IMG/VR virus record: IMGVR_UViG_3300012949_000670
DNA: 64,000 bases
Source: a virus
Reading direction: 5' to 3' (one strand)
This document shows positions 2,475 through 21,608 of the stretch, one piece after another. Each line of letters begins with the position of its first letter. The stretch's first letter is position 1. The translations under genes and the position numbers were made by a program. The notes under the pieces are model-generated. The model made no database searches and was not told the DNA's origin. It worked only from the letters and a program-made list of their open reading frames with translations.

Positions 2475-4550
2475 TTACGGAATGACAGAACTGTGCGAAA
2501 AATTCGGCACTTTGATTTCGAATTCCGGTGATGAATTCGCTGAGAACGCGGCGTTTATGTTGAGCAAAGGAATAATAAAGTGATACTGGCTGGGCGTATC
2601 TTTCAAGGTCATCGAGATTTGCCCCAGTTCGTTGGTCTCAATGACTTTGACGATTTTCTTCGTCTTCGTATCCTGAATGAAGATTTTGATGCCCGCAACG
2701 CCTTCGTCCAAGTCGATTTTGCCATTCCCATTGATGTCATTGAACACAGCGAAGCTGTACTGGTAAATCTTTGTGTTCGGAATAACCGGAGTCGGATTTT
2801 GAACACCAGTCAACTTGACCGCGAATGGAATGCTCTGCGGAAGCGGCGTGGGGGTCGGCTGAGGAGTAGCCGTAGGCGGGGTTACAACACCGCCCGAGGG
2901 CGGAGAAGGCGGAGTTGTTGGGGCAGCAGTCGGCTTGGGCGGGTAGCCTAGACCTGTTTTGCAGCGGAAGGTGTACTGGACTGCGCCAGCAGCAGGGTCG
3001 ACGACAGTTGGGTTTTCCAGAGCAACCTTGAAGAAAATCTGCGTATTCGCCGGAACGTTGTGCAGAACCACACGAGGGTTTACCCCTTCATAGTTCGTGA
3101 AAATGTCCGGGCGAATTTTGTCGCCGTAATCGCCGCGACCGGCAACATGGCCGTAAATCACCAGGTCTAAGTTAGAACTTGTGCTGACCGCTTCGCAGTG
3201 CATGTCCATGTCTTTCGGAGCAACAAACGTGAAGTAGTCCTCATCCGGGTTTTGCAGAGTGCTGAACATGGTTAGACCGGTGATTTCCTGGTCATAACCA
3301 ATCACCGTTGCTTTATCTTCCGAGTTGTTCGGTTCGAGACTATCTTCCGTACCCCGAATTTGCGGGACATAAGCAAAGTGGAACGAGTATGTTCCAAACT
3401 TGCTGTAATCGGCATTAGGCTGGTTGCCGTAGATGTCGAAGTACACTATGGCCGGGGCATCAACTGCGAACTGAATTTGCGGGTTCACCGGGCCGCCGTC
3501 ATTACCAACGACATAGGTTTCGGTGCGGCCGTCCTGATGGATAATTTTTACCTTCATGTCGGGGTCAATCAGGGTGTCATTTGATGAAGTAACAACCCCG
3601 GCGTATTTGCCTTTGTCAATATTGACCTTGAAAAAGTCGTGGTCGCCAGCCGTTAGGGTCAGATTTTCAATTTTCTGACCAGCGACGATGGCGGTCGCGG
3701 TTTCTTCCGTGTTATTGCTGTTGGGGAATACGTCATACATATCATTCCCGCCAGCGGTTGTATACATAACGCTGAGAGAATAAGAACCATAAGCCGTGTA
3801 ATCTACGTTCTTATCAGCGCCGGAAACGCAGACCTTTACTGGAAGGTTGTTGGTGATATTCGCTTGAACCAGCGGGAAGCTGCCATTTCCATCTGACCGC
3901 AAAACCTGACCAACGATTGAACCTTCGAGAGAAGTGCAGTCGTTGGCGCTTGTCCCCTGTCCCTGATAGATGCCGACATTCAACGCAATCGCCGGGTTGC
4001 TAGGTTTGACAGAGAATGTATAAAGCCCCTGCGACAGCGTAAAGGTGAACCAATCCACGTCGCTCTGACCGATGGTCAGACCGGCGTACTCATAGTTCGG
4101 AACCAGATAAGAAGCGGCTTCCCATGAGTTGTTCGGTTCGTAAACGTCTGCTGGCGGAGTGGTTGGGGTCGGAGAAACGACACTCTGAACAACGACCACA
4201 TCCGCTTCTGCAAAACCGCTGGTACCGCAGGCGTTTTCTGCCCGTACCCAAATGTGATAGCGGTGGTCGAGCGTGAAGCGGAACGGATAAGAAGTTGTAT
4301 TACCGATATTTTCAATTGGCGCTTCCACCGTGCTTCCCAAATCCTGCACCTTGATGGAATAAGACGTAGCGCCCGGAACGGGCTGCCAGCTAATCGTTGT
4401 GACGTTGGCTTGAATTTGTCCGTTGGGTGTTAGCCCTTGCGGGACATTCGGTGGTGCGGTGCAGGTTTGTGCCTGTGCGACAACAACCGGTGTGCCAAGC
4501 GCTCCTAAAGCGATAAAAAACGCAAGAAAAATACTGACCAATTGCTTCAT
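2475..4550 (-). CDS. Secreted multidomain surface protein (FN3-like, three PPC-like repeats, Pro/Thr linker, SdrD-B-like C-terminus)
   Basis: Signal peptide MKQLVSIFLAFF... with the start moved to the ATG at 4550. DVYEPNN/DSLEPNN repeats and FNDINGNGKIDLDEG. Confidence 0.7.
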   Translation of the reverse strand: MKQLVSIFLAFFIALGALGTPVVVAQAQTCTAPPNVPQGLTPNGQIQANVTTISWQPVPGATSYSIKVQDLGSTVEAPIENIGNTTSYPFRFTLDHRYHIWVRAENACGTSGFAEADVVVVQSVVSPTPTTPPADVYEPNNSWEAASYLVPNYEYAGLTIGQSDVDWFTFTLSQGLYTFSVKPSNPAIALNVGIYQGQGTSANDCTSLEGSIVGQVLRSDGNGSFPLVQANITNNLPVKVCVSGADKNVDYTAYGSYSLSVMYTTAGGNDMYDVFPNSNNTEETATAIVAGQKIENLTLTAGDHDFFKVNIDKGKYAGVVTSSNDTLIDPDMKVKIIHQDGRTETYVVGNDGGPVNPQIQFAVDAPAIVYFDIYGNQPNADYSKFGTYSFHFAYVPQIRGTEDSLEPNNSEDKATVIGYDQEITGLTMFSTLQNPDEDYFTFVAPKDMDMHCEAVSTSSNLDLVIYGHVAGRGDYGDKIRPDIFTNYEGVNPRVVLHNVPANTQIFFKVALENPTVVDPAAGAVQYTFRCKTGLGYPPKPTAAPTTPPSPPSGGVVTPPTATPQPTPTPLPQSIPFAVKLTGVQNPTPVIPNTKIYQYSFAVFNDINGNGKIDLDEGVAGIKIFIQDTKTKKIVKVIETNELGQISMTLKDTPSQYHFIIPLLNINAAFSANSSPEFEIKVPNFSHSSVIP

Positions 4551-4659
4551 ATAAAGTATTCCCTTTCCCAACAGCGAAATGGTTGTTGATAAATGATGAT
4601 TATTCGCTCCGATATGCAAAATCACCGATTTTCCCGTCCTCCAAATTGGAGAGACGTTT

Positions 4660-6000
4660 ATGGAAAATTTCATTGGGCATATCATCGGACTGGACTTAGT
4701 GTTTTCAGGATTGAGCGGTTTTTCTGTTTTCAAAAACAACAAACTTCTCGCATATGGATTGCTCAATAAAAAGACGCAATCGACAACAAATGCGCAGGAG
4801 AAAGTAAAGCATTCCCTGTATCTTGCCGACCGGCTGTACCAACTTTTTTCCAAAATCAATAACAACCAGACCGTTTGCGTGATTGAAAAATCAGACTGGC
4901 ATCAGAAAGGGGGAGAAAAGAAACGGGTTTACGTCAAAGGCAGATGGGTGACGAAGGTCGTCAACGCACAGTCAGCCGGGCGTGAACGCAATGCCCTGAA
5001 ATCGCTGGCATTGTCCCGTGGGGTGGTCGTGAGTCTCCTGCTGGCGATGGATGGGAAGATTACCCCCTATTACATGACAGTTGACGATGTGCGCGGGGCG
5101 CTGCTGACATCCAGCCGGGCGAAAGAAGCGATGTTCCAAAAAATCCGACAGCTTTATTTTCTGGATTTGGAAGAAACCACTGAAAACATGAACATCACGG
5201 ATGCGATTGCCCTGCCGACAGCATTTTTGAAAATTAGCCAGCTTCCTAACGGAAATGCACGAAAAGTCAAACAGGCGAAACAGCTCGCCCATTCTCGTGG
5301 AGCGATTGGGGCTTTCATGCACGCGATAAACGATATGGGATTCACCAATTATGGGGAGACCCGGACGCTGTACCAGCCGGAAAACGTTCAAAAACTGGCG
5401 CAAATCCGCAAGCCGCTGATGGAGTGCAATAAAAAGCACATCCTACGGCCGCAGGCCGCAGCGGAAGATTATTTTGTATCGGTCGATGTTTCTGCCCGGC
5501 ATCCGGGGGTTGTGGTCGGCAGTCCGGCCGAAAACGGCGCAATCAATCTGGCGTTCCATAAAACCTACGGACTGGAAAAGAAAATGCCGGACACAGCGGA
5601 TATTAGCTATGAACTGCTGGTCGCTGCCAACCTTTTGCTGTCTTTAGCATCTGTTTATGCACTGTATCCGCTGAAGGGAATTGTCTTTGAATATTCCGAC
5701 TGGCATCGAGCCGGGGCAGGGCTGGATTACCAGATTGACATCAAAGCGATTAACAGCCTGTTTTTCACCTACGGTGTCCTGATGGGGTTGGCTTATTTTT
5801 GGAATATCCCCCTGTATGCAGTCAATGCAACCGATGCCAAAAAACTGCTGTGCGGCAAAAGAAACGCCACTAAAGCAGATGTTAAAAATTATATAAATAA
5901 ACGCTATCCACAACTCAAAAATGAACATACCAGAGATGCGGCGCTCATATTGGAATATTTTTTAAAAAGCCAATCGCTATCATATAAAGGAGGTAATTAG
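4660..6000 (+). CDS. ruvC: Tandem double RuvC-like Holliday-junction resolvase
   Basis: Two RuvC-like units: IIGLD...IEKSDWH...RGVV...ITDAIA and VSVD...FEYSDWH...YGVL...KKLLCGKRNATKADVK...RDAA. Confidence 0.7.
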   Translation: MENFIGHIIGLDLVFSGLSGFSVFKNNKLLAYGLLNKKTQSTTNAQEKVKHSLYLADRLYQLFSKINNNQTVCVIEKSDWHQKGGEKKRVYVKGRWVTKVVNAQSAGRERNALKSLALSRGVVVSLLLAMDGKITPYYMTVDDVRGALLTSSRAKEAMFQKIRQLYFLDLEETTENMNITDAIALPTAFLKISQLPNGNARKVKQAKQLAHSRGAIGAFMHAINDMGFTNYGETRTLYQPENVQKLAQIRKPLMECNKKHILRPQAAAEDYFVSVDVSARHPGVVVGSPAENGAINLAFHKTYGLEKKMPDTADISYELLVAANLLLSLASVYALYPLKGIVFEYSDWHRAGAGLDYQIDIKAINSLFFTYGVLMGLAYFWNIPLYAVNATDAKKLLCGKRNATKADVKNYINKRYPQLKNEHTRDAALILEYFLKSQSLSYKGGN

Positions 6001-6027
6001 TTTTTTATAGCAGGAGCGATTGGTTCA

Positions 6028-6831
6028 ATGGATTATTACTGTGGATATTATCGGACGCCTACCAAGGTGCAGCCTGTTTCGATGTGGAAGCAGTTTAGCC
6101 ATATTTCCCGGTTCAAAAAATCGCATTCGCTGGCTGAATCTGATTTTGTATCTCCGTTTTTGTATTGCGATGCGGAAAAGGTTAACTACACCCGCATCGT
6201 TGCTCCGCTGGATAGGCATGAAAAAATTGCTCAAAGCAGGCGAGAGGTTGAACGGGTGAGCGAACTGGTAAAGGTGCAGACTTTCCGAGAGTGGGTGGAT
6301 AAAAATGCCCCGGAAAGCATAGACGAAAATGTTCATTTCCATATCGTCACGCCAGTCATCATCAAATTTATTGACATCAACGTTCACTTCAAAGACTGCC
6401 CTAGTTTCTATGACCTTTTGACTGCCGTACGCGACAGCAGCCGCCATATGATGCTGTATGACGGCTTCCCCGCTTCTTCCGTCTTCAGGAATAAATGCCT
6501 TTACCTAATGCAACACAAAACGAAAGGCGTTTATTCTTCAACCACAACCGTCCCTGGATATGCCCGTAATTCAAAAACAATCAATGCCGACATTGGCAAT
6601 TTGCATCTCAACTTATCTGACATCTACCGGGCAAATCCAGACAGTCGCCAGGTCATCGGCTATCTGATGTACCTGATGAATATGCTGGTTATTGGGGAAA
6701 TGGGTTTGGGAATGGTTTTCCCCTATCAGGCGGATATTGAACCCATTCCAGAACTACTGGACAGCTTGGGACGGATGTATGTCGGTCTCCAACTCAATGA
6801 TTATTACCCGATTATTTATCAGGTCAAATAA
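6028..6831 (+). CDS. Hypothetical protein
   Basis: 267-aa ORF co-oriented between the RuvC-like gene and recG, with RBS GGAG. No motif recognised. Confidence 0.6.
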   Translation: MDYYCGYYRTPTKVQPVSMWKQFSHISRFKKSHSLAESDFVSPFLYCDAEKVNYTRIVAPLDRHEKIAQSRREVERVSELVKVQTFREWVDKNAPESIDENVHFHIVTPVIIKFIDINVHFKDCPSFYDLLTAVRDSSRHMMLYDGFPASSVFRNKCLYLMQHKTKGVYSSTTTVPGYARNSKTINADIGNLHLNLSDIYRANPDSRQVIGYLMYLMNMLVIGEMGLGMVFPYQADIEPIPELLDSLGRMYVGLQLNDYYPIIYQVK

Positions 6832-6839
6832 AGGCACGT

Positions 6840-8822
6840 ATGGCGAAAACAAAAAAGTCGGAAACTATCCAACTCGTTTCGTTTGATACCCCTCTTGAAT
6901 CATACAAGTTCGGGAAACCGTATCTCGAATTGTTCAAGCGGAGGGGTTTTACGGCGGTTGGGCATTTTTTGTCTACGCCGCCGAAACAAATTCTGTTTTT
7001 TGAAAAGAACTTCAACCCAGAAGCGTATTTGTACACCTATGCGGCGCTGGTGCTGAAGGTGAACGAAGTTCATGCCCCGGAAAACAAAAATTTCCTGATT
7101 TTGAGCGGGAAAGATTATTCCGGGCATACGTACCGGGTGCTGACCTATCAAAAAACGAAGTGGAAGAATATTTTATGGTCGCTGCTGGCAAAGAAGTCAG
7201 AAGTTACCATGATTGTCTATGGGCTTCTTCGCAAGGATAACAGCTATTTCAAAAATAAGGCGGATTACTTCATCGAGGGACAGTATATTGACCTGTACTC
7301 GCAGAAACGAATTGCGACCCCGATGTATCTTTCCGACTTTTCGGATAATGAGAAGCTGACCAAAACCGCCGCAACACTGCTGGAAAAGGTCGCCTTCTCT
7401 GATTCGCTTCAGCCGTATCTCCCCGGCATTTACCCAGACATGGGAGCGATGCTGCGCCACCTGCACCAGCCGACTTCGCTGGACGAATGGTATCTTGCTG
7501 TGCAACGGTATCTCATTATGGCGCTGGTGTATTTTTATATGCGGCGCGACCAGTCGATACCTCTGCTGACTGAATACGAAACTCCGCCGCGCCCCATCCA
7601 TGCGCAGTTCGATGAGCAATCCGCCGCTGGACTGCCGTTCCAATTGTCCGAATCACAGAAAACGGCTGTAAAAAACGTGTTGGCTTCACTTGCGCAGGAA
7701 AAGTCAACTGTTCATTATGTGATGGGGGATGTGGCTTCCGGGAAAAGCGTGGTTGCTTACCAAAGCGCCAGTTCCATTGTACGCGCGTCTGTGGAAGGCA
7801 AACCCGCTCGGGTCGTACTTCTCGCCCCGACAATTATTCTCGCTACGCAGCACTACCGGGATTTCATCTCGTACTATCCTGATTTAAAGGAAAAGACCGT
7901 TCTTATCACAGGAAGAACGAAGGTCAAGGACGTTGACCAGTTCCAGGTCGTGATTGGTACGCACGCCCTGCTGACCCGCCCGGATATGGATGCCGACCTG
8001 CTGATTATTGACGAACCGCAAAAATTCGGCATTGGGCAGCAAAAGTGGAAAAAGCCGACCCATTATCTATTCCTAACCGCCACACCGCTTCCCCGCTGGA
8101 CGGCGCTCCTGCTGGCGAATGCCATTCCGTGCAGTGAGATTGAACCCCGCCCGCGCGATGTAACACTGGTGCCGCTGGCGATGAGTGAGGAAAAGCTGCG
8201 CCTTTTGCTATCTAAACTCCCGCCCGATAAACCGAAGATGATTGTCGTTCCTCGCATTTCTGCGGAAGGCGTCCACATGAACCTTGAAGAAGTCAAAGCG
8301 GTTCTTGATGATATGGGTATCGCCTATGCGACCGTGCATGGGAAAATGAAGGATGCCGAGATACTGGACGAGATGGAACGCTTCCGAAACAAGGAGGTAA
8401 GCACCCTTTTGGCGACGCAGATGGTGGAAACCGGGTTGAATATCCCGGAACTCAAGTACCTTGTTTTGATTGGTGCAGAATCCTATGGCAATCTTAACCT
8501 GTACCAGCTCACCGGACGGGTAGGGCGAAATGGCGAACAGTCGTTTGTATACCTGATGACCTATGCACTGGACAGGATGACCAATTTCGCCAAAACTGTG
8601 AAAACCGGATACGATGCGGCGAAGTTGGATTTGTTGCAGCGTGGGGCGGGGTGCATGGATGAAACCACACAGAGCGGGCCAATCAAAATCCCGTTGGCAG
8701 AACGCATGACTCAAGACACCATCGATGCTTCCATTCAGGTCTACAAAGAATTGCACAAAAATGCTGTAGACAAAGAAAAAGTATTTTCGGAGCTGTCACA
8801 GTTCTTCGATAAATATTTCTAA
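6840..8822 (+). CDS. recG: RecG-family SF2 DNA helicase (divergent)
   Basis: GDVASGKS, LLAPT, IGTHAL, IIDEPQKFG, TATPLPR, QLTGRVGR, DLLQRGAG. Confidence 0.85.
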   Translation: MAKTKKSETIQLVSFDTPLESYKFGKPYLELFKRRGFTAVGHFLSTPPKQILFFEKNFNPEAYLYTYAALVLKVNEVHAPENKNFLILSGKDYSGHTYRVLTYQKTKWKNILWSLLAKKSEVTMIVYGLLRKDNSYFKNKADYFIEGQYIDLYSQKRIATPMYLSDFSDNEKLTKTAATLLEKVAFSDSLQPYLPGIYPDMGAMLRHLHQPTSLDEWYLAVQRYLIMALVYFYMRRDQSIPLLTEYETPPRPIHAQFDEQSAAGLPFQLSESQKTAVKNVLASLAQEKSTVHYVMGDVASGKSVVAYQSASSIVRASVEGKPARVVLLAPTIILATQHYRDFISYYPDLKEKTVLITGRTKVKDVDQFQVVIGTHALLTRPDMDADLLIIDEPQKFGIGQQKWKKPTHYLFLTATPLPRWTALLLANAIPCSEIEPRPRDVTLVPLAMSEEKLRLLLSKLPPDKPKMIVVPRISAEGVHMNLEEVKAVLDDMGIAYATVHGKMKDAEILDEMERFRNKEVSTLLATQMVETGLNIPELKYLVLIGAESYGNLNLYQLTGRVGRNGEQSFVYLMTYALDRMTNFAKTVKTGYDAAKLDLLQRGAGCMDETTQSGPIKIPLAERMTQDTIDASIQVYKELHKNAVDKEKVFSELSQFFDKYF

Positions 8823-8970
8823 TTTTCCATCCAAATTGCGAAATCGGGTGATTGTCCGTCTTTTTTCTGATAGATAATCACCCGTTTTTTTATATACAAA
8901 AACGCGAAATGGAAATGGTTTCCGTCTTTGAAGTACGCAATTTTCATCAAAAAAATGGAGTGATAAGAAG

Positions 8971-10428
8971 ATGACCGAAAATAACAAAAGGGCTTCTATC
9001 AAAATCATCGAGGCCAAGAGGCCTAATAAGCCCCATATTATTAATCCGTTGGCCATGGGGGATGCAATGAAGAAAATGAATCTTTATTACGTCCCATCAC
9101 TGGTTGACCCTGACTTAACCCCAGAAGAAATGCTCCGCAAGCATCAGGAACGCCTGGAATATAACGGCTCTTTCCGTGACGGCTATATTTTCCGGCAGTT
9201 CGTTCTGGCGGCTGAGACTCTTGAACAGCAGGAACAGCTTTACATCGCCATCGATGACAAGGTGCCTTACGATGAAAAGCCGAAGGCTCTGCAAGAGATT
9301 TGGGACGAAATGCTGGTCAGGAAGCGCCCGACCTATATGTTCGCCACTGTGACACGGGCGGCTCGCATTGATACCTTTACCTTCCTTCCGGTTTGGCAGA
9401 TTCTCAAGCGCAATGATGAAACTGAAGACAATACGTTTGTCGTCCGGGTGGGCGTGCCTGCTGAGGAAGTCGGTATCGAGCATGAGCTGCCTTACGTGGT
9501 CTTTTCTGCGGCGCACATGCAGGAAGCCCGTGAGTTCGCCTACAAGCTGTTCTTGAAGATGCGCGAAACCGAAGAGGCCTTCCTGCGGGAGTTCTTGAAG
9601 GTGGGTACGAACCGGGTGCGGTTGGCTTCTCACCTGATTTATCTTTCTCGTGTCCTTCAATTCGGTGAAGAAGGCAGCGAAAACGATGATGCGAAGGTCA
9701 TTTATTACCTCGGGCAGGATGTCATCACGCTCCAGCGTGTTGACCCGCACAACGGTTATCTGCTGACTGTTCACAAGCGTGTCCCCAACCCGGATGGGAA
9801 CGGTTTCGCTCATCGGGAATATCAGTTTTTCTTCGAGATTGAACCGCCCATCAAGGCAGTGTTGGCGACCGAGTTCTACCGCCGCACGATGCGCCTTTCT
9901 TCGATTCCGTACTTCCCGTCTCGTGGGGTGGATGCGGTGATGCCGGCCATGTTGGGCTACTACCGCTTCAAGACGGCCAACCAATATTCTGCGACTAACG
10001 TCACGCTCGGCAAAAAGCTGGGCGCTCCGTCCGCGGAAATCTATGAGTTTTTGAGCGATAAGGGAACAGCGGTGACGGTGGTCGTTCCTCAGCGAGAAGA
10101 AAACGAACTGGTCGAAGGCGATACGCCGTTTGCTTATGTTTTCTCTGGCACAGCAAAGCGGCTGGCGGAAGCCCTCAAATGGAAAGATTTGAGGACTGAA
10201 AAGCAGTGGTTGAGTGACCATGCACCCCGCAATGTCAATCCTGACGACATCGAAAGCTCGATTGCGCCAATCGGTGAGATTTACGTCAAAGAAGATGATG
10301 GTCAGGTCGTTCGCATCAAGCGGGATAAGAATGGTAAGCGTACCCGTTCCGAAAAGCGGCGCTTCAGCGTGGACATCATTGATTCCAATGCCACCATCGC
10401 CGCTATGGGGATGGAACTGTCTGACTAA
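8971..10428 (+). CDS. Hypothetical protein, first gene of the Tad-like operon
   Basis: 485-aa ORF with coding-like codon use. No motif recognised. Confidence 0.65.
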   Translation: MTENNKRASIKIIEAKRPNKPHIINPLAMGDAMKKMNLYYVPSLVDPDLTPEEMLRKHQERLEYNGSFRDGYIFRQFVLAAETLEQQEQLYIAIDDKVPYDEKPKALQEIWDEMLVRKRPTYMFATVTRAARIDTFTFLPVWQILKRNDETEDNTFVVRVGVPAEEVGIEHELPYVVFSAAHMQEAREFAYKLFLKMRETEEAFLREFLKVGTNRVRLASHLIYLSRVLQFGEEGSENDDAKVIYYLGQDVITLQRVDPHNGYLLTVHKRVPNPDGNGFAHREYQFFFEIEPPIKAVLATEFYRRTMRLSSIPYFPSRGVDAVMPAMLGYYRFKTANQYSATNVTLGKKLGAPSAEIYEFLSDKGTAVTVVVPQREENELVEGDTPFAYVFSGTAKRLAEALKWKDLRTEKQWLSDHAPRNVNPDDIESSIAPIGEIYVKEDDGQVVRIKRDKNGKRTRSEKRRFSVDIIDSNATIAAMGMELSD

Positions 10429-10454: not shown

Positions 10455-12158
10455 ATGACGGAAGAGCAAAAGTGTATCTTGTATGACTATGAAAACTCGA
10501 AGCTCGTCGAGCTGCGGCAGGAATATATCATCAACGACAAAGTTCCGCTTCCTCCGCCGCCGTATCAGGTTTATTTGTGCCGGTTGAGCGCCGATGGCAA
10601 TCTGGAAGTTTACCGAGTGTTAGGGAGAAAGTCCGGCAAGCCGGTCGTGACCAGCCGGTATACAGAGGCAGTGGATGATGCCTTTATCGAGAAACTCCAA
10701 CAGGATGCAAAGGGCACACCTTTTGGAGTTTACTTCGGCGTTGAAGAAGATGAACCTGCTGACGAAGCTGAGTCCAACGAGTTTGTTTTTGAAGTCGAAT
10801 CGCCTGTCGCTACGCCCGAACAGCCTCGCCCAACGGAAAATGAGTATTTCACGTTTGAACCCGCGACAGATGCCGCGCCAGTTGTGTCTTCTGCCGACAG
10901 CGCTCTGATTACCCAACCTGCTTTGGATAATGTTCCTGTGCAGACTGGATTCACCAGTTCGCAACTCAACGATTTGCCAGAAGTAAAGAAAAATATTTTC
11001 TCGAAAGTGTTTGGGCGCAAACATCTGGCGGGGAAGATTTTCTATATGGGCGATGCTAATTCGGTTGTGTTGGCACAAAATCGAATCCGCTCGATTCTTG
11101 ACCGGGCAAATATCAATGAACTGCCATTCGATGAAGTGATTACTCCCCGCCGATTGGTGACGCAAATCAACCAGCAGAAAAATGTGCTGGTGCTGGCAAA
11201 CGTGGCGGAGCTGCGGAGTACATCTGAAGGTCTGGACGCCTACCGCATTTTGACTTCTAACGGTGTGCAGGTCGTGGATATTCGTCATCTTTGCGGCGAG
11301 ATGCGAGACACCGAAATCCTTTCTCTCATTCAAAACATTCACACTGTCGATGTCAAAAGCGTCCTGTACACTGACCAGCGCGTATTCATGTTTGTCAGCA
11401 ACACCGGTGGTGTTGGTAAGACTACTTTGTCCTTCAACTTCTCCCACTGGTTAGCTACCAAAGGCGTGAACGTCATGTATATGGAGCTGTTGAGTGGTAA
11501 GGGTATCGACAAGGTGGTAGGGAAGGATACCGCGTCTCTGGAAAACATTTTCGATGGACGGGAAAAGCCCCGCGCTATCGAAGTCGATGCACAGAAGCAC
11601 ATGGTTTACTGTGTTTCGCTGGAAAGTGCCAATTCCGGTTCGGTGGATAACAAGAATAACTGGATTTGGTTCTTCAACAACTTTGTTTACAAAATTGATG
11701 AGACCGACCCAGAGAACAAGGAAATCGTCCGGCTGCGCAAGGATACCGCGCCCTTCTATCACGCGGTGGTCATCGATACGTACAGCGACAGTCATCCCAC
11801 CCGCGTTTTAATGCCACAGTTCGCAACGGATGTGGTGATGGTGATTGACATGCGCCCGACCACGACCGCAAGCCAGATTCTCGATACTATCATCGGATTA
11901 TCAATGAATACCGATGTCACGAAGAAAAACTTCTATCTGGCGTACAACCAATATCGTGACAACCCGGATGTTAAGCGTCATTATGAATATACCCGCGCTG
12001 AACTGGAATCGCTGGCGGAAGAACGGGGCATCAAACTGAATGCCATTCGCATTCCAAACAATCCAGATTGCATGGGGCAGATTCATATCAAGGACGATAA
12101 GCATCGCATGAAGGTCGTTGCACCGTTAGTAGAAGCATTCTACGGTATCAAAATCTAA
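10455..12158 (+). CDS. TadZ/CpaE-like ParA/MinD-family ATPase with an N-terminal extension
   Basis: Deviant Walker A SNTGGVGKTT, followed by VMYMEL and VVIDT. Lies directly upstream of the RcpC- and TadA-like genes. Confidence 0.7.
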   Translation: MTEEQKCILYDYENSKLVELRQEYIINDKVPLPPPPYQVYLCRLSADGNLEVYRVLGRKSGKPVVTSRYTEAVDDAFIEKLQQDAKGTPFGVYFGVEEDEPADEAESNEFVFEVESPVATPEQPRPTENEYFTFEPATDAAPVVSSADSALITQPALDNVPVQTGFTSSQLNDLPEVKKNIFSKVFGRKHLAGKIFYMGDANSVVLAQNRIRSILDRANINELPFDEVITPRRLVTQINQQKNVLVLANVAELRSTSEGLDAYRILTSNGVQVVDIRHLCGEMRDTEILSLIQNIHTVDVKSVLYTDQRVFMFVSNTGGVGKTTLSFNFSHWLATKGVNVMYMELLSGKGIDKVVGKDTASLENIFDGREKPRAIEVDAQKHMVYCVSLESANSGSVDNKNNWIWFFNNFVYKIDETDPENKEIVRLRKDTAPFYHAVVIDTYSDSHPTRVLMPQFATDVVMVIDMRPTTTASQILDTIIGLSMNTDVTKKNFYLAYNQYRDNPDVKRHYEYTRAELESLAEERGIKLNAIRIPNNPDCMGQIHIKDDKHRMKVVAPLVEAFYGIKI

Positions 12159-12171
12159 GGAGTATTGTTGA

Positions 12172-13137
12172 ATGAAAAGAAACTGGATTCCGCTGTTTAG
12201 TCTGTTAGTGGCAGGCGTGCTGGCTTTCTTCATGTGGCGGCAAACGCAGAGTACCATCAAGATGACAGACATCCTGGCATTTAATGCCAACATCGCACCG
12301 GGCACGATTATTACCCCGGAGCTGTTGGTCACAATCCAGATGGACGAAACCATCTTGAACAATGCGGTTCTCACCCCGCTGGTTAATCCGGCGGATGTAG
12401 TCGGAAAGGTCGCCCGTTATAACATCATGGCGGGTACACCAATTTACCGTGAACAGTTCGTAGAGAAGGGGCAATACAGTTTCCAGGAATCGGAAAACTC
12501 GTACTTCATTTCCTTCGGGCTGGACGAGTTGAACGTTACCCGGTTGCCGTACGGCTTTGTAAAGGGCAAAATCACCCTGTGCATGGTGGTGCAGAACCCG
12601 CAGATTATGGGACAGTTCCCCATCGGTTTGCCTCCGCAGGAAATTGAAACCCTGAGATTGCAGGACATTCGCTGCCCAGTCAGGAATATTCAGGCTGTTG
12701 CACTGACCGCCGACAATATGCTTCCGTGGACATATATGGTTTATGACCCTGAGGCGCAGAAGTATGTGGCGGGGCCAGAGCCGGCCAAGATTGGTTTCTG
12801 GATTAGCCAGTCCACCGACCCGCGCTACCCGATGTATGATGAAAACGGGAATGTGGTCACGGACGAGAACGGGAACATCGTTCCTGACCGGGAAGCCTAC
12901 CTGAAAATCCTGACCCGCATCCTCCTGCGCCCACAGGCAACCACAGCCGCCACGACCAAACTGTTCTTCATTCTCCCGCCGCAGGAATACAACAATACCG
13001 CCCCCGAATATATCGCGGCGCATCCTGAAGCTCAGACGGTCATCGAAGAAATTGATACCGTAAATCCGTATGAGGAATACGAACTGATTTATCGCCCGGA
13101 TGAAATCAAGGCGCAGGAAGAGCAGGGACTTCCGTAG
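12172..13137 (+). CDS. cpaB: CpaB/RcpC-like SAF-domain pilus assembly protein
   Basis: N-terminal TM helix, then a SAF pattern (NIAPGTIITPELL...DVVGKVARYNIMAGTPI). Confidence 0.75.
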   Translation: MKRNWIPLFSLLVAGVLAFFMWRQTQSTIKMTDILAFNANIAPGTIITPELLVTIQMDETILNNAVLTPLVNPADVVGKVARYNIMAGTPIYREQFVEKGQYSFQESENSYFISFGLDELNVTRLPYGFVKGKITLCMVVQNPQIMGQFPIGLPPQEIETLRLQDIRCPVRNIQAVALTADNMLPWTYMVYDPEAQKYVAGPEPAKIGFWISQSTDPRYPMYDENGNVVTDENGNIVPDREAYLKILTRILLRPQATTAATTKLFFILPPQEYNNTAPEYIAAHPEAQTVIEEIDTVNPYEEYELIYRPDEIKAQEEQGLP

Positions 13138-13154
13138 AAGAAGATAATATCAAC

Positions 13155-13198
13155 CAATCGAAAACTCCCCCAGTTTTATTTGGGGGAGTTTTCGATTG
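13155..13198. terminator. Perfect 18-bp hairpin between cpaB and the tadA-like gene
   Basis: CAATCGAAAACTCCCCCA / TGGGGGAGTTTTCGATTG. Confidence 0.7.
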
Positions 13199-13291
13199 TG
13201 GGAAATCGTAAAATCCGCTGGCAAATCGTCATACATATCAGCCCCGCTTTTTGGGCTAGTCTGATATGTATCAGTAAAACCAGGAGTATTT

Positions 13292-14830
13292 ATGGCATTG
13301 CTACCATCGGCTTCTAATTCAAATAACATAATCGACCCGTTGGAGTATCTGGATTCATCCCGGTATTCAGTCATCTATGACGAACTGAGAAATTATTTTC
13401 AGGAAAACAAGATTGAAGTCCCTCAAATGGGGGAAAAGAATGAAAAGCTCGTCGAACGCTTCCGGGATTCAATCAAGACCTACTTCCAAACAAAATTAAA
13501 TCTCAGTGCCACGAAGCACTATCCGCTTGAAGTCCAGGAACGTCTGGATACGGTCATCAGCGACATGTGCGATTTGATGCAGGGATTTGGCCCCCTTCAA
13601 AAGTTCCTGCGACTGGACACTATCGAGGAAATCATCGTCCGCAACGGCAGCATTTTGACAGAACAGAACGGGCGCATCCGGGTGGAGGAAGATAATTCCA
13701 ACGACCCTGACCGCCGCCGCATTCTGGACTCACAATTCACCATTCTAGCGAAGCGCATTGCCGACCTCGGCCGCAACACAATCTCGGAAACACAGCCTTT
13801 CGCTGTTACGGTTATCCCGGATACGCTTGACCGCTTCGCAGTAATTATCCCTCCGCTAGCACATGAATATGTGGCGATTAATATTCGTGTGTTCCCTAAG
13901 TCAAAGGCATACACCCTCAATGACCTGCAAAAAAGAGGCGCATTTGCGGATAAAAAGACTTTTGAAGGAAGTAAGGTCGGCCAACTCCAGAAAAAACGGG
14001 TGCAATACGATGCTTTTATTCAGGATTACATCGAGCTAAAACGTCGGGAAGTCAAAAAGAGAAGGGAGTCTGACCCGCCGACCGAACAGGAAATCATGTA
14101 CAACTTGGGACGAAAAACATCGTTTCGTAAGCTGATTGATTCCATCCCTGATGACAATGCGAAGAAAGATTTCGAGAAAATCTCAAAGGATATAGGTGCC
14201 AAAATTGCCATGTTTTTAGGCTATGTGGCGTACCTGAACCTTTCTACCGTGCTGATGGCAGGTGAGTTCTCGTCCGGTAAGACGACCATTTTGAACGCCA
14301 TGTCCTACTTCATTCGTGAAAATGTTTCACCCATCACGATTGAGGAATATTTGGAATTGAAAATCCAGCACAAGTACGGGCTGCGTCTGGTGACATACAA
14401 GAAGATTGACCAGGGCGTAGTCCTCAACCAGGTCATCACTCGTATGAGACCTGACCTCATTATCGTGGGCGAGCTGGTAGAGAAGGGACAGAGTTTTGAG
14501 TTCCTGAACGCCTCGAACTTCGGTAAGAAAGCATGGAGTACCATCCACTCGAACAACGCTTATGCGGCGCTCATCCGTCTGGAAAACCTTTCGACGATTG
14601 AAGGGTATACGCCGTTTGAAATTCGCCGCCGTATTGTCAACTCGGTGGATATGGTCGTTCACGTGGCGCAGGAATCTGGTCAGCGTTTCGTGAACGAAAT
14701 TGCGCTGGTACAGCCTAAATTGTCGGATAAAGGTGACTACATTTTGAAACCGCTGTATAAAAGCGGCCGGCGTGGTTCCCGTCTGGATATGTTGCAGGCG
14801 CTTTGGGCTGGTCTGTCTGAACAAGATTAA
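13292..14830 (+). CDS. cpaF: CpaF/TadA/VirB11-family secretion ATPase
   Basis: IEEIIV, RFAVIIPPL, Walker A GEFSSGKTT, Asp box ITIEEYLEL, RMRPDLIIVGE, His box STIHSN. Confidence 0.85.
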   Translation: MALLPSASNSNNIIDPLEYLDSSRYSVIYDELRNYFQENKIEVPQMGEKNEKLVERFRDSIKTYFQTKLNLSATKHYPLEVQERLDTVISDMCDLMQGFGPLQKFLRLDTIEEIIVRNGSILTEQNGRIRVEEDNSNDPDRRRILDSQFTILAKRIADLGRNTISETQPFAVTVIPDTLDRFAVIIPPLAHEYVAINIRVFPKSKAYTLNDLQKRGAFADKKTFEGSKVGQLQKKRVQYDAFIQDYIELKRREVKKRRESDPPTEQEIMYNLGRKTSFRKLIDSIPDDNAKKDFEKISKDIGAKIAMFLGYVAYLNLSTVLMAGEFSSGKTTILNAMSYFIRENVSPITIEEYLELKIQHKYGLRLVTYKKIDQGVVLNQVITRMRPDLIIVGELVEKGQSFEFLNASNFGKKAWSTIHSNNAYAALIRLENLSTIEGYTPFEIRRRIVNSVDMVVHVAQESGQRFVNEIALVQPKLSDKGDYILKPLYKSGRRGSRLDMLQALWAGLSEQD

Positions 14831-14851
14831 TTTTTGGGAAGGTGTCAACGT

Positions 14852-15832
14852 ATGGATGCTTTAAACGAATTCCTCGCCACTCTGGATATGATTGTAAAAG
14901 CCTACTACCCGGTTATTCAAATCGTGTTTGTCGGGCTGATTTTTGTGTTCGGCTTCACTTCTTGTGCCGCCATTCTTGACTTCTTCAGCATTGGAATTTA
15001 CAAACTTCAATTCCGCCTCACGAAAAAGCGGATAATGACTAAGAAGCAGGAGAGCGCTATCAAGGCCATTCCCCTTTTCCCGAAAAGTGGGAATGTCAAT
15101 ACTTCAACGATTTTCTTTATCCTGTGGACGGCTGCTGGCGTGGCAGGGGCGGTTATAGCTGCCGATTTATTAGTTTCCCCGGTTGTATTTATATCGCTGG
15201 CAGCGATTGGATTTGCTGGCTATCGCGGTAGTTCCAACAAGGAATATATCAAGCGGCGTGGTAACTTCACCGAAATCCTTCGTCTCTTTGCAGGCAACCT
15301 GGAAACCTATCAAAGCGTCCAACAGTCGCTCATCGAGCTGTATAACCAGTACAAAATGTTGGATGAGAAGATGATTGATGAACAGTTCGTGCAGAACCTT
15401 GCCCGTGCTAACGAACTCATCGCACAAGGCGAATTAATTGACCTCGTGGTTGACCGGGTGTTCGGTGGCGATAAGGTTTACCAGCAGCTTTCACACGCAG
15501 TCTATATCGCAACCCATTCCGGGCCGGGGACGGCAATTGAATACTGCAAAGAACGTATGGAAAAAAATGCCGAGTGGCGGAAGCTGATGATGCTGATTAA
15601 TACCGAAGTTGGTGGCGTGAAATTAACAGCAACCGTGCTTGAATTTTTGCTGGTCGGTGGTGTTTTCCTGACATTGCTGCCTTCATGGGGAGCGGATATG
15701 AATTCGCTGTTGCACGAATATTTCTTTGAAAACGCCGGACGCAAAATGGCGCTGGATGCTATCTTGATTGCCCATACCGTTGTTCAATTCTTGTTCAACG
15801 AATATCTTTCCTCGAAGTCGAATCAAATCTAA
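14852..15832 (+). CDS. TadB-like inner-membrane platform protein
   Basis: Multi-TM protein with a T2SSF-like soluble segment (SVQQSL), directly after the TadA-like ATPase. Confidence 0.55.
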   Translation: MDALNEFLATLDMIVKAYYPVIQIVFVGLIFVFGFTSCAAILDFFSIGIYKLQFRLTKKRIMTKKQESAIKAIPLFPKSGNVNTSTIFFILWTAAGVAGAVIAADLLVSPVVFISLAAIGFAGYRGSSNKEYIKRRGNFTEILRLFAGNLETYQSVQQSLIELYNQYKMLDEKMIDEQFVQNLARANELIAQGELIDLVVDRVFGGDKVYQQLSHAVYIATHSGPGTAIEYCKERMEKNAEWRKLMMLINTEVGGVKLTATVLEFLLVGGVFLTLLPSWGADMNSLLHEYFFENAGRKMALDAILIAHTVVQFLFNEYLSSKSNQI

Positions 15833-15849
15833 TCAGGAAGAGGACATAC

Positions 15850-16854
15850 ATGGACTGGTTAAACGGTATTCCCAATATCTTTTCTTTTATCCCGACCGAA
15901 ATCCTCAATTGGATGATTGTTCTGCTGGTTGCTTATGCCGGTGGAAACCTTGCGTGGATTGTAGCCAACATGCTGAATTATCAGGTCACAAAAATTGTCA
16001 TTGACCTGAACCGCAAAAACAGCAAGCGTAAAGGGCGAAAAAGTCAAAAGGAACGCTCACTGGTTACGCAGGGCGGGGCGATTTACCATCCGGCGGTGTT
16101 CGCCACGAGTGTAACGCCCAATGATATTTACGGCATGAGCCAGCATAACTGGGAATTGTACTTCGCTGCGGCGGGCGGTATCGGTGCGATTCTCGGTGTC
16201 GCCACCAGCCCCGATGATGCCTTCACCGGTTTGCTGTACGGTCTCATCATCGGCATTAGTGCCATGTACGGTCTTCAGAAGTTCTATCGCTACCTGCGTG
16301 TTTCTAAGACTCGCAAAGATGCGATGGACACGATGGATATGCTTCAGGAACAGCTTATCATTGAACGCAACTCCCTGAACAACGCCATGAATAAAATCAA
16401 AGACCGCTACATCCAGCACGTGCTTATCTTCGGCAAAGATTCATGGTATTACCAGAACTTCGTTTTAGGTCGCATGGTGTTCCTGATTTCTACCCAGCCC
16501 GGTTTCGTCCCACAAGAACTCCTGAAGCAGTTGGGGGATGAGTTAGGCGAGGTCGATTCTATTCGCAGGATTGTCAGCACCGCCCTCAGCCGTATGGGAC
16601 AGTCCGGTGATGCGGGTCTGGCGATTAAGGAGCAAATCACATCCTACTACGATGCTTATTATTCCGACCTGCACGAAAGCATCCCGCAGTTGAGCGATAA
16701 GCTGTTTGTGCCAATTATGGTGACGCATTTCATGCCTTTTTTAATTATCCTGCTCTGGCCTATTGTAGAAACGATTTACGCGATGATGGGTGCAGACGTG
16801 ATGAGCGGCGAAGGCATGGATAAAATGCCAAAGTTCTTTGGCGGTGGGAATTAA
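15850..16854 (+). CDS. TadC-like inner-membrane platform protein
   Basis: Same TM layout as the preceding gene, with a C-terminal TM (PIMVTHFMPFLIILLWP). Called mainly from synteny. Confidence 0.55.
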   Translation: MDWLNGIPNIFSFIPTEILNWMIVLLVAYAGGNLAWIVANMLNYQVTKIVIDLNRKNSKRKGRKSQKERSLVTQGGAIYHPAVFATSVTPNDIYGMSQHNWELYFAAAGGIGAILGVATSPDDAFTGLLYGLIIGISAMYGLQKFYRYLRVSKTRKDAMDTMDMLQEQLIIERNSLNNAMNKIKDRYIQHVLIFGKDSWYYQNFVLGRMVFLISTQPGFVPQELLKQLGDELGEVDSIRRIVSTALSRMGQSGDAGLAIKEQITSYYDAYYSDLHESIPQLSDKLFVPIMVTHFMPFLIILLWPIVETIYAMMGADVMSGEGMDKMPKFFGGGN

Positions 16855-19443: not shown

Positions 19444-21561
19444 ATGGCTTATATTTATCGCTTTATCCCTAAGTCTTATTTCGGTCTATCACAAGAATCG
19501 ATTTTCAATATCGTCAGCCAAACACAGGCGATGTTTCGCAGCGTAGCGGATTCATCGAACCATTATTGCCGCATCGTCATCCATAACAGCCCTTATACGC
19601 TGGACAGCTATATCAAAGCTCTGACTATTCAGCGTGCCCGCTGCGGTGACAAGAAATGGATGACCGCCGGCCTGACATCCATGATTAACAGCCTTCGGTT
19701 TCAAGCCGACAAAAACCTGTTCCAGCCTTATGTTTATTTGGTGCTGTTCGACAAAAGGCTGGAAGATGCCAATGAATTTGCGACCCTGTTTGAAGCCCAA
19801 ACGGGTATGACGATGATTCAGACCCCGACCAGCGGGGCAGGGCTACCGCAAATTGTCGAAACGGTGGCACGGATTACCGACAAATACATCTTCACCCCGC
19901 CGAACCGCTACTGGAAAACCATTTATATTACCGGGTTCGAGGGCGAACATGATGTTTTCAAACCTGTGTTTGAACTGGTACGCCAGCCGTTTGAACTCAT
20001 GGTCTCCTTCGACATCATGTCGTATGCCAACGCCAATTTGGGGCAGAAGCTCGACATCACCATGAACCAGACCCTTGCAGAGTATTACCGCAATACGTAT
20101 CCAGCCAGCAGACAGGGGATTGAAGAACGTCTGGAAGCACTAAGACAGGTTCGGGAGCTGGTTGCGGCGAAACAGGAAAGCCTGCATGAGTTGACCGGGG
20201 CGATTGCTTTTTCCGCGCCGACTCTTGAGAAACTACAAGAACGGCAAGGAAGCATTAATGCGGCGACCACCGGTTTCTATAAACTCGCTATCCCGCGTGG
20301 GATGCAGGCTCAGGCGCTTCGCCGTTTTACGACCGACCATCCGACAACCTGCCCGCAGCCCGGAGAAATCAAAAAAACGGTTATTTCCAGCAATCTCGCT
20401 ATTGCCAACGTTGTTGGGAACGGTTTCCCGGAACCCGGTGGGAATGACGGCATCTGGTACGGTAATTCATATTTGAACGGGCACCCGATTTTGTACGATG
20501 GCTTTGGCCCCAACCGCAATGACGCGAACCACACCATCATCCTCGGCGCGACTGGTTCTGGTAAGACCGTAGCTTTGCAAACGTGGGCTTACCGCAGCCT
20601 GTTGGCGGGGATGCAGGTGATTGTGATGGAACCGCGCGGTCACTTCCGCCGACTGCACTCGTTGCTCCCCGATGAGAGTGCTTATAACGATATGGGGTTC
20701 GCTTCCAAATACAGTATCAATATTTTCGACCCCGTGTACCGTGACCTGAACGACCAGGTGGGTCACGTCATTACGGCGCTGTCTTTGCTGCTGAAGAAAG
20801 AATTTGACGAGACGGAGAACGCCGTTCTTCGCAACGAAATTACCTCGCTGTACCGGAACTACGACTCCATCATTCTGGAAAATCTCGTTTACGCGCTGCG
20901 GCAAGAAAAGTGGGCAAACCACCAGAATCCGCAGGTTCGTGAAGCTGCCGCGAATATCGCTGACCTGATTGACATTTCTATTATCAACACAGAAATGGAT
21001 AAGGTTTTCAATCGCAACACCAGCGGTATCGACCTGAATCTGGACACCGTAAGTCTGTCTATTTTTGATTTTGAAAAGGTATCTGCGGATTATCAAGGCT
21101 TGTTGTACTTCCTGATTTTGGCGAATATCCACTCTTATTTTGTCGGTAAGCGTCATCGCTCCCGCAACGCCATCATCATCGTGGACGAGTATTACCTGAT
21201 GAGCCAGATTCCGCAGTTGGCAGAAAGCCTTGCCCTGTTCTTCAAAACGTTCCGTACCTACGGCGTAGCGGTTTGGGTGGCAGAACAGGACTGGTACACG
21301 CTTACGGGCTTTGAAGGGCAGCGCAACAAGCACGGTGAATATTTGGTCAGCAACGCTGCCAATGTGGTCGCCCTGTATCACAACACGCTAAAAGATGCGC
21401 GGGCTTTGGCAAACATCATCCCGGAGCTGAATGAAGATTTGTTGAGTTACATCACCGGGACGAAGCGTGCCGGTACGGGTGTTTTGAAGCTCAAAGAAAA
21501 GATGATGCCATTCAGGTTGGAATTAACCGAACAGGAACGAAATCTGTTTATCGGTAGCTAG
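19444..21561 (+). CDS. virB4: VirB4/TraC-family T4SS ATPase
   Basis: HTIILGATGSGKT, VIVMEPRG, INIFDP, IIIVDE, FRTYGVAVWVAEQ. Confidence 0.85.
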   Translation: MAYIYRFIPKSYFGLSQESIFNIVSQTQAMFRSVADSSNHYCRIVIHNSPYTLDSYIKALTIQRARCGDKKWMTAGLTSMINSLRFQADKNLFQPYVYLVLFDKRLEDANEFATLFEAQTGMTMIQTPTSGAGLPQIVETVARITDKYIFTPPNRYWKTIYITGFEGEHDVFKPVFELVRQPFELMVSFDIMSYANANLGQKLDITMNQTLAEYYRNTYPASRQGIEERLEALRQVRELVAAKQESLHELTGAIAFSAPTLEKLQERQGSINAATTGFYKLAIPRGMQAQALRRFTTDHPTTCPQPGEIKKTVISSNLAIANVVGNGFPEPGGNDGIWYGNSYLNGHPILYDGFGPNRNDANHTIILGATGSGKTVALQTWAYRSLLAGMQVIVMEPRGHFRRLHSLLPDESAYNDMGFASKYSINIFDPVYRDLNDQVGHVITALSLLLKKEFDETENAVLRNEITSLYRNYDSIILENLVYALRQEKWANHQNPQVREAAANIADLIDISIINTEMDKVFNRNTSGIDLNLDTVSLSIFDFEKVSADYQGLLYFLILANIHSYFVGKRHRSRNAIIIVDEYYLMSQIPQLAESLALFFKTFRTYGVAVWVAEQDWYTLTGFEGQRNKHGEYLVSNAANVVALYHNTLKDARALANIIPELNEDLLSYITGTKRAGTGVLKLKEKMMPFRLELTEQERNLFIGS

Positions 21562-21608
21562 TTTCATCTTACTTAAAGCATTCCATTCATTTGATAGAAG
21601 AGGTCTTT

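Follow-up and report, generated by a model that had tools for sequence, protein, structure and literature searches.

The window analysed in this work, the whole 64,000-nucleotide stretch of IMG/VR virus record IMGVR_UViG_3300012949_000670, carries on its plus strand a gene (4660..6000) for a tandem RuvC-RuvC protein (P0001), in which two RuvC-type domains lie in a single chain of 446 amino acids (aa) translated from an ATG start. A covalently fused and diverged RuvC dimer of this kind adds a new architecture to the RuvC family. The protein is rather likely to be a monomeric, pseudo-dimeric junction nuclease of that family with two non-equivalent active sites, probably acting on substrates shaped by a RecG-like motor. 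The gene was characterised with the use of approximately 22 full-length homologues and a structure model obtained with AlphaFold2 (AF2). Nothing relevant on tandem, duplicated or single-chain RuvC proteins or on pseudo-dimeric resolvases was found in the full-text literature, and the fused form is absent from a broad survey of the combinations in which RNase H-like domains occur (PMC3985635).

Architecture, fold and predicted packing of the two halves

The N-terminal RuvC-fold domain comprises aa 6-195 (4675..5244, plus strand, as are all parts of the gene) with the catalytic set D12, E76, N178 and D181, and the C-terminal RuvC-fold domain comprises aa 269-442 (5464..5985) with the catalytic set D276, E344, H423 and D426. 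A preliminary description of this DNA, made from the letters alone, had proposed two RuvC-like units in the open reading frame (ORF), the second starting at about 5470, each with D...E...D acidic residues. Both units were found, the second beginning at aa 269, that is at position 5464, and the acidic residues are present as D12/E76/D181 and D276/E344/D426. The domains are joined by a helical linker of approximately 70 aa (aa 196-268, 5245..5463), in which AF2 places helices at 200-225, 231-236 and 240-256. Immediately past the catalytic Glu of the N half lies the motif E76-K-S-D-W-H81 (4885..4902), and the corresponding place in the C half is occupied by E344-Y-S-D-W-H349 (5689..5706). A beta-hairpin insertion (aa 82-104, 4903..4971) is confined to the N half and is seen in some members of the family only. 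Its two strands, 86-92 and 95-101, were modelled with a predicted local distance difference test score (pLDDT) of only about 58, and in the family alignment the hairpin is missing from homologues of a soil clade.

The AF2 model of the whole protein, calculated with an alignment of 22 family members, reached a mean pLDDT of 88.3 and a predicted template modelling score (pTM) of 0.89, the latter indicating a defined domain arrangement. The secondary-structure order of RuvC (beta1-3, helix A, beta4, helix B, beta5, helices) occurs twice in the model, and the top matches among PDB structures in the Foldseek search were all RuvC. When superposed with VIA-align, aa 269-442 fitted RuvC of T. thermophilus (6s16_B) with Z 13.7 and a root mean square deviation (rmsd) of 2.4 Å over 158 aligned residues, and RuvC of E. 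coli (1hjr_A) with Z 12.8. In the N half, aa 2-207 matched MOC1 (6kvo_A), a chloroplast resolvase of the RuvC family, with Z 13.3, and aa 6-192 matched the RuvC of phage bIL67 (4ktw_B) with Z 12.2. RuvC clusters of the ESM Atlas were matched by aa 267-446 with a template modelling (TM) score of 0.81 and by aa 3-199 with a TM score of 0.80, and the feature-nearest clusters were mostly viral RuvC-like proteins. No structural match extending across both halves was found in PDB or in the ESM Atlas, each match covering one half. The concern raised in the preliminary description that one half might lack the RNase H-like fold was removed by these results, since AF2, VIA-align and the ESM Atlas all gave a RuvC/RNase H-like fold for both.

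Two tandem RNase H-like domains also occur in ATPases of the ASKHA (actin/hexokinase) type, and human hexokinase 2 did appear among the Foldseek matches with E 1e-4. The hexokinase-type superpositions were poor, however (TM 0.19, rmsd 35 Å), and no ASKHA chain stood within the 50 best VIA matches. The strong matches were all RuvC-family nucleases, the nuclease carboxylates are kept and the predicted interface is of the RuvC type. The ASKHA reading was rejected as very unlikely, the hexokinase-type matches reflecting only the general theme of two RNase H-like domains.

At the sequence level the tandem RuvC is a remote relative of RuvC that lies outside the family by the thresholds of the sequence models (PF02075 / TIGR00228). 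The sole sequence-model match was PHROG 159, 'RuvC-like Holliday junction resolvase', which covered aa 370-439 with E 3.2e-13. The profile of the N half found a single match among PDB sequences, E. coli RuvC (1hjr, E 0.074), with D181 in register with Asp141 and N178 with Asp138. The profile of the C half placed RuvC on top, with 7w8d (E 0.09) followed by 4ep4 and 1hjr. A phmmer search of PDB sequences with the tandem RuvC itself returned noise only.

In RuvC the dimer interface is built by helices A and B (PMC3834835; PMC3592405). The packing of the two halves was modelled by leaving out the linker and folding each half as a chain of its own from its family alignment. The predicted complex reached an interaction prediction score from aligned errors (ipSAE) of 0.82, compared to 0.08 for the best of three controls; the mark used for this score is reached by 58 of 80 solved complexes and by 2 of 110 mismatched pairs. 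The runs agreed in at least 87 % of contacts, with a partner pLDDT of at least 80. The predicted interface of the N half is formed by aa 43-60 (helix A), 109-130 (helix B), 77, 80 and 136-138 (start of strand 5), and that of the C half by the same elements, aa 315-326 (helix A), 361-380 (helix B), 345, 347 and 385-389, where the residue number is the fragment number plus 261 (84 becomes Y345 and 86 becomes D347). The cross contacts are reciprocal, helix A of the N half meeting helix B of the C half and the reverse, and the tightest ones link the invariant G121 with G372/V373. Residues of the shared motif, 77 and 80 in the N half and Y345 and D347 in the C half, also fall within the predicted interface. 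The modelling supports a pseudo-twofold RuvC-like dimer inside one chain, and on this basis the covalent pseudo-dimer suggested earlier, with halves associating through the A and B helices, gained support.

Active sites, probable duplication and conservation of the fused gene

Profile alignments and hhalign brought D12, E76, N178 and D181 of the N half into register with Asp7, Glu66, Asp138 and Asp141 of E. coli RuvC. By the same means D276, E344, H423 and D426 of the C half corresponded to the T. thermophilus type of site, Asp7, Glu70, His143 and Asp146 (residue names as in PMC3592405), and in the profile alignments the His...Asp register held also with D. radiodurans RuvC. With regard to the four-residue set of RuvC the C half is fully canonical, whereas the N half has three of the four residues and Asn at the third position. 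All four N-half residues, D12, E76, N178 and D181, are invariant in the 22 full-length sequences, and both catalytic sets are complete in 21 of these 22 homologues (36-57 % identity). The exception, P0003 (L001 10001-11338), carries the changes E344D, W348T and D426G in its C half; this C site looks disabled, and the protein may represent a natural single-active-site form. P0003 is the closest homologue of the tandem RuvC (57 % identity) and lies in the same gene neighbourhood.

The motif E-[K/Y]-S-D-W-H, pointed out in the preliminary description as common to both units, proved to be real and conserved across the family. In the N half E76 and W80 never vary and D79 hardly does, the pattern E-x-x-[D/E]-W being kept family-wide; in the C half F-E-Y-S-D-W-H-R is nearly invariant. 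The loop preceding helix B of RuvC reaches across the interface of the dimer and is believed to insert into the middle of the junction; it bears aromatic residues that matter for catalysis, namely E. coli Phe69 and T. thermophilus Phe73-Tyr75 (PMC3592405). The E-x-S-D-W-H motif, directly past the catalytic Glu, occupies the position of this aromatic loop, and W80 and W348 would accordingly be the version of the loop used by the tandem RuvC family.

No similarity between the N and C halves was detected by BLASTP. When the halves were compared by hhalign, a match above chance emerged (probability 95.2 %, E 2.4e-8); it extended over 116 columns with approximately 22 % identity and aligned both motifs and the final Asp. 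Aligned in the same way to canonical RuvC, represented by four sequences from Anaerolineae genomes, the N half gave E 3.6e-5 and the C half E 4.1e-5. The halves are closer to each other than to canonical RuvC and share the derived motif, which favours a tandem duplication within the lineage over the fusion of two unrelated RuvC genes and agrees with the internal duplication originally proposed. With a canonical set of only four sequences, the contrast between the self-match and the canonical match is indicative rather than decisive.

A search of 5.8 billion clustered proteins yielded 27 matches, of which approximately 22 were full length (398-465 aa, 36-57 % identity), and an exhaustive phmmer search of 1.84 billion representatives yielded only seven clusters. 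No relatives were found in GTDB species genomes or in IMG/VR by pattern-seeded scans, which could miss distant ones, and none in 50,697 phage records or in plasmid records. Half-profile searches for stand-alone single-domain relatives at shorter lengths gave only fragments of fused genes. Between the two deep clades of the family the domains retain 39 % and 43 % identity, compared to 15 % in the linker.

The existence of a few short homologues could be taken to mean that loss of a stop codon or misassembly had fused two adjacent RuvC genes, as the preliminary description had allowed; nothing else spoke for such an artefact. The short forms are all contig-end fragments or lie on frameshift-rich contigs: P0028, P0030 and P0031 come from long-read contigs with many frameshift-split genes, and linker sequence in a different frame lies ahead of P0029. 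On two long-read ENA contigs (L084 and L085) the tandem RuvC, MalT-like, alcohol dehydrogenase and MatE genes are split by apparent frameshifts, which give rise to false 'split' forms of the family. Against the artefact stand the approximately 22 fused homologues, reaching down to 36 % identity, and the ORF found intact and free of indels in independent assemblies. The entire ORF was recovered in single contigs with no indels from two DNA sequencing runs of different coded studies, although one of these runs matches the window almost exactly and may be a source of it. Runs of 19 coded studies (anaerobic digesters and one bioreactor) contain the tandem RuvC stretch; the coded studies may belong to one campaign, and three of the runs may be the source of the window DNA. 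Positions 4500-9000 recur in numerous digester metagenomes as well as in several metatranscriptomic libraries. Strain substitutions inside the ORF are synonymous in four of five cases, and the fifth, S78P, introduces a Pro that is natural at this position in other members. The artefact explanation, left with a negligible probability, was refuted by the fused homologues, the intact independent assemblies and the nature of the short forms. A contig of 1,235 nucleotides (nt) from a metatranscriptomic library covers positions 4664-5898, that is both halves and the linker.

Gene cluster around the tandem RuvC gene

A Shine-Dalgarno-like sequence, GGAGAG (4648..4653, plus strand), was read 6 nt upstream of the ATG of the tandem RuvC gene. 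A long ORF on the opposite strand (2475..4865) overlaps the beginning of the gene. It most likely starts at an internal Met at position 4550, preceding a signal-peptide-like stretch, and a start at this Met would most likely leave a divergent intergenic region of approximately 110 bp upstream of the tandem RuvC gene.

Downstream, the tandem RuvC gene is followed by co-directional genes with gaps of 28, 8, 148, 26 and 13 bp. The first (6028..6831, plus strand) encodes a protein of 267 aa with no known family, whose orthologues adjoin the tandem RuvC in five lineages. It is followed on the same strand by the gene for a divergent RecG-like superfamily 2 (SF2) helicase of 660 aa (6840..8822), a gene for a protein of 485 aa with no known family (8971..10428), which recurs between the helicase gene and a ParA-like gene in five lineages, and the gene for that ParA/MinD-type P-loop protein of the TadZ/CpaE-like kind (10455..12158), followed in turn by CpaB-like and CpaF-like genes. 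The order around the ParA/MinD-type gene is kept in related loci.

The helicase matched TIGR00643 (recG) with E 2.2e-68, its aa 71-625 aligning to positions 38-618 of 629, but the score of 231 bits lies below the cut-off of 659. Its top matches among PDB sequences were RecG (9wm0_A with E 5.8e-33, and 1gm5) and then Mfd, and Pfam recognised DEAD and Helicase_C. The protein is RecG-like, below the equivalog cut-off, and no certified RecG. The preliminary description had placed the resolvase beside RecG with no RuvAB in the window. The latter part held for the window ORFs that were scanned, although it carries little weight because the 64 kb analysed belong to a contig of at least 367 kb; the former part had to be modified, since the 267-aa gene intervenes and the helicase falls short of RecG proper. 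Contigs from several metatranscriptomic libraries were also found to cover most of the helicase gene (7301-8854), and gaps in such cover over parts of the cluster carry no evidential weight.

Neither the 267-aa nor the 485-aa protein matched any Pfam, NCBIfam or PHROG family. The AF2 model of the 267-aa protein was of low confidence (pLDDT 57.9), and its best VIA matches among 48,161 chains were Cas6 proteins, aligned over nearly the full length with Z 8.7, 7.8, 7.1, 6.7 and 6.6. This is a weak lead towards a Cas6-like double ferredoxin fold. No array of CRISPR-like repeats was detected within the window. At the position of the 485-aa gene, L001, L002, L003 and L087 have genes of 482-511 aa.

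The set consisting of the tandem RuvC, a protein of approximately 265 aa, the helicase, a protein of approximately 485 aa and the ParA-like protein recurs in four other lineages, L001, L087, L002 and L003. In L003 both the order and the orientation of the set are changed, and the fact that the genes have stayed together despite this rearrangement argues for a functional link. The L003 locus (1-2959) places the cluster near a TnpB-type gene (OrfB_IS605 / Cas12f1-like_TNB), an N6_N4 DNA methylase gene and a 329-aa gene with a weak Pfam match to Cas6.

Proposed mode of action, alternative explanations and the wider window

According to the proposed mechanism, an ancestral RuvC-type gene would have been duplicated in tandem and the copies then fused. 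The two RNase H-like domains would pack via their A and B helices, as the subunits of the RuvC homodimer do, so placing two non-identical metal-dependent active sites on one face. Structure-specific cutting of four-way (Holliday) or related branched DNA is the most likely activity to be expected, each domain presumably nicking one strand. The asymmetry would be hard-wired, with Asn and the clade-specific hairpin beside the putative junction-contacting aromatic loop in the N half and the canonical His in the C half. Asymmetric or altered cleavage, as anticipated in the preliminary description, can be inferred from Asn178 as opposed to His423 and from the hairpin confined to the N half; the two cuts would then probably be unequal in rate or specificity and follow a fixed nick/counter-nick order. 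The RecG-like branch-migration helicase and the tandem RuvC probably share substrates, as the co-directional cluster with the helicase in this genome and in four related lineages suggests.

Several observations weigh against this interpretation. Neither Pfam (searched up to E 1 and including PF02075) nor NCBIfam offered a family for the tandem RuvC, and the half-profile matches to PDB RuvC sequences reached only E 0.07-0.2. Since RuvC dimers have already been solved, the packing score may partly derive from the predictor's familiarity with them and is better taken as likeness than as independent proof. E. coli RuvC D138N, according to Saito et al. in 1995, reportedly binds junctions and does not cut them, and given the invariant Asn178 the N site of the tandem RuvC may be weak or dead. 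The C-site losses in P0003 imply that two working sites are not obligatory in the family. In a larger clade, mostly from soil-type metagenomes, the gene stands alone amid ordinary metabolic genes with no helicase neighbour, hence the nuclease is not absolutely dependent on the genes next to it here. The RNA-library contig is consistent with expression of the tandem RuvC, although DNA can be present in such libraries. Finally, the family is a rare one, so far met solely in metagenomes, and its function is a prediction from sequence and models.

The same observations on the active sites could be accommodated by a hemi-active pseudo-dimer, in which one domain cuts and the other has a structural or DNA-binding role, so that the enzyme would be a nickase or a fork/flap nuclease and not a genuine resolvase with two cuts. 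Such an enzyme is suggested by the invariant Asn178 at the position of E. coli Asp138 and T. thermophilus His143, by the inactivation of E. coli RuvC that D138N is said to cause, by P0003, whose lineage appears to live with a single site after the change of D426 to Gly, the loss of W348 and E344D, and by the failure of the N half to match any RuvC sequence model in hmmscan when the C half matches PHROG 159. A decaying dead site would look different, however: D12, E76 and D181 are invariant, N178 never drifts, conservation is about equal in the two halves, and both catalytic sets are complete in all members but one. Asn is moreover able to bind a metal ion via its carbonyl oxygen. The hemi-active enzyme, the main alternative, was judged unlikely.

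The tandem RuvC might alternatively serve as the effector nuclease of a so far undescribed multi-gene system together with the 267-aa protein, the SF2 helicase and the 485-aa protein, possibly as part of a mobile element, and act in defence, in element maintenance or in pilus/secretion-linked DNA processing and not in general recombination. In five lineages the four genes do stay linked, including where their order has changed, the five best structural matches of the 267-aa model are Cas6 proteins, and the nearest ESM Atlas clusters and the PHROG match are viral RuvC-like proteins. The window also contains genes for a type IV secretion system (T4SS) pilin (363-755), Tad pilus proteins (12172-16854) and a VirB4-like ATPase (19444-21561). 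The Cas6 lead, on the other hand, comes from a low-pLDDT model, and a Z of 8.7 is of a size that chance often produces; no repeat array lies in the window; the soil-clade neighbourhoods look metabolic and ordinary; and the phage, plasmid and IMG/VR collections (the last scanned by seeded pattern) gave no homologue. A role of this sort was judged quite improbable. The pseudo-dimeric junction nuclease with two non-equivalent sites remains the preferred reading. Its most extended form is conceivable but doubtful: a natural asymmetric resolvase with ordered nick/counter-nick would team up with a RecG-like motor of its own, and perhaps also with the two conserved unfamilied proteins, to form a 'resolvasome' that does without RuvAB, the host being an uncultivated lineage or a giant genetic element of anaerobic digesters.

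Among the known systems the closest parallel is offered by bacterial RuvC (PF02075; E. coli 1HJR, T. thermophilus 4EP4/4LD0/6S16, D. radiodurans 7XHJ), which has the same RNase H-like fold and order of elements as both halves. Its D-E-H-D set is like that of the C half, the conserved Gly of helix B is found in both halves and an aromatic loop follows the catalytic Glu, and its homodimerisation via helices A and B is mirrored by the predicted association of the halves. Bacterial RuvC, however, is a homodimer of approximately 160-aa subunits, with the two active sites approximately 30 Å apart, whereas the tandem RuvC has both domains in one chain. It differs further in the Asn and the insertion of the N half, in falling beneath the curated models, and in having a RecG-like neighbour and not ruvAB. 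The phage RuvC-like resolvases (PHROG 159; Lactococcus phage bIL67, 4KTW) provided the best sequence model for the C half and a Z of 12.2 for the N half, but unlike the tandem RuvC they are single-domain homodimers. The N half found its closest structural counterpart in chloroplast MOC1 (Z 13.3), and mitochondrial Cce1/Ydc2 has the RuvC fold too, Ydc2 also being among the matches; these enzymes are homodimers with organelle-specific extensions and show no sequence relationship to the tandem RuvC beyond the fold.

RuvC heterodimers engineered to combine an active with an inactive subunit were reportedly used, for example by Fogg and Lilley in 2000, to study nick and counter-nick. Such heterodimers likewise have inequivalent sites, but they are laboratory constructs, whereas the tandem RuvC is natural, conserved and fused. 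The coordinated nick/counter-nick of RuvC, the textbook example of a symmetric resolvase, has been studied via engineered heterodimers and inferred from crystal asymmetry (PMC3592405). If the proposed reading is true, a single chain with distinguishable sites would allow each to be mutated independently with no mixing of subunits, and the family would show the evolutionary outcome once the symmetry constraint of RuvC has been removed. The RecG-like link suggests a pairing of branch migration and resolution other than RuvAB-RuvC, and a compact monomeric junction nuclease could serve as a reagent.

The remainder of the window carries genes for DnaE, DnaG, GyrA, GyrB, a RecJ-like DHH protein, CTP synthase, signal peptidase and DnaJ, as well as M23 peptidases and many ORFs with no family. 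No phage structural genes were seen in a PHROG scan of ten other large ORFs of the window. The CTP synthase is closest to that of Chloroflexota (Anaerolineae), with 61 % identity, and the genomes concerned have an ordinary single-domain RuvC. GyrB, tried as a taxonomic marker by means of exact peptide patterns, yielded one weak match, which carries no weight. Contigs bearing the tandem RuvC or near-identical members of its protein cluster reach 367-399 kb, and the DNA could be chromosomal, from a lineage not sampled before, or belong to a giant extrachromosomal element. A 39-bp tandem repeat (22893-23041; 3.8 copies, 69 % matches) lies inside an ORF of 701 aa with no family (21591-23696) and coincides with the strong GC skew of that segment.

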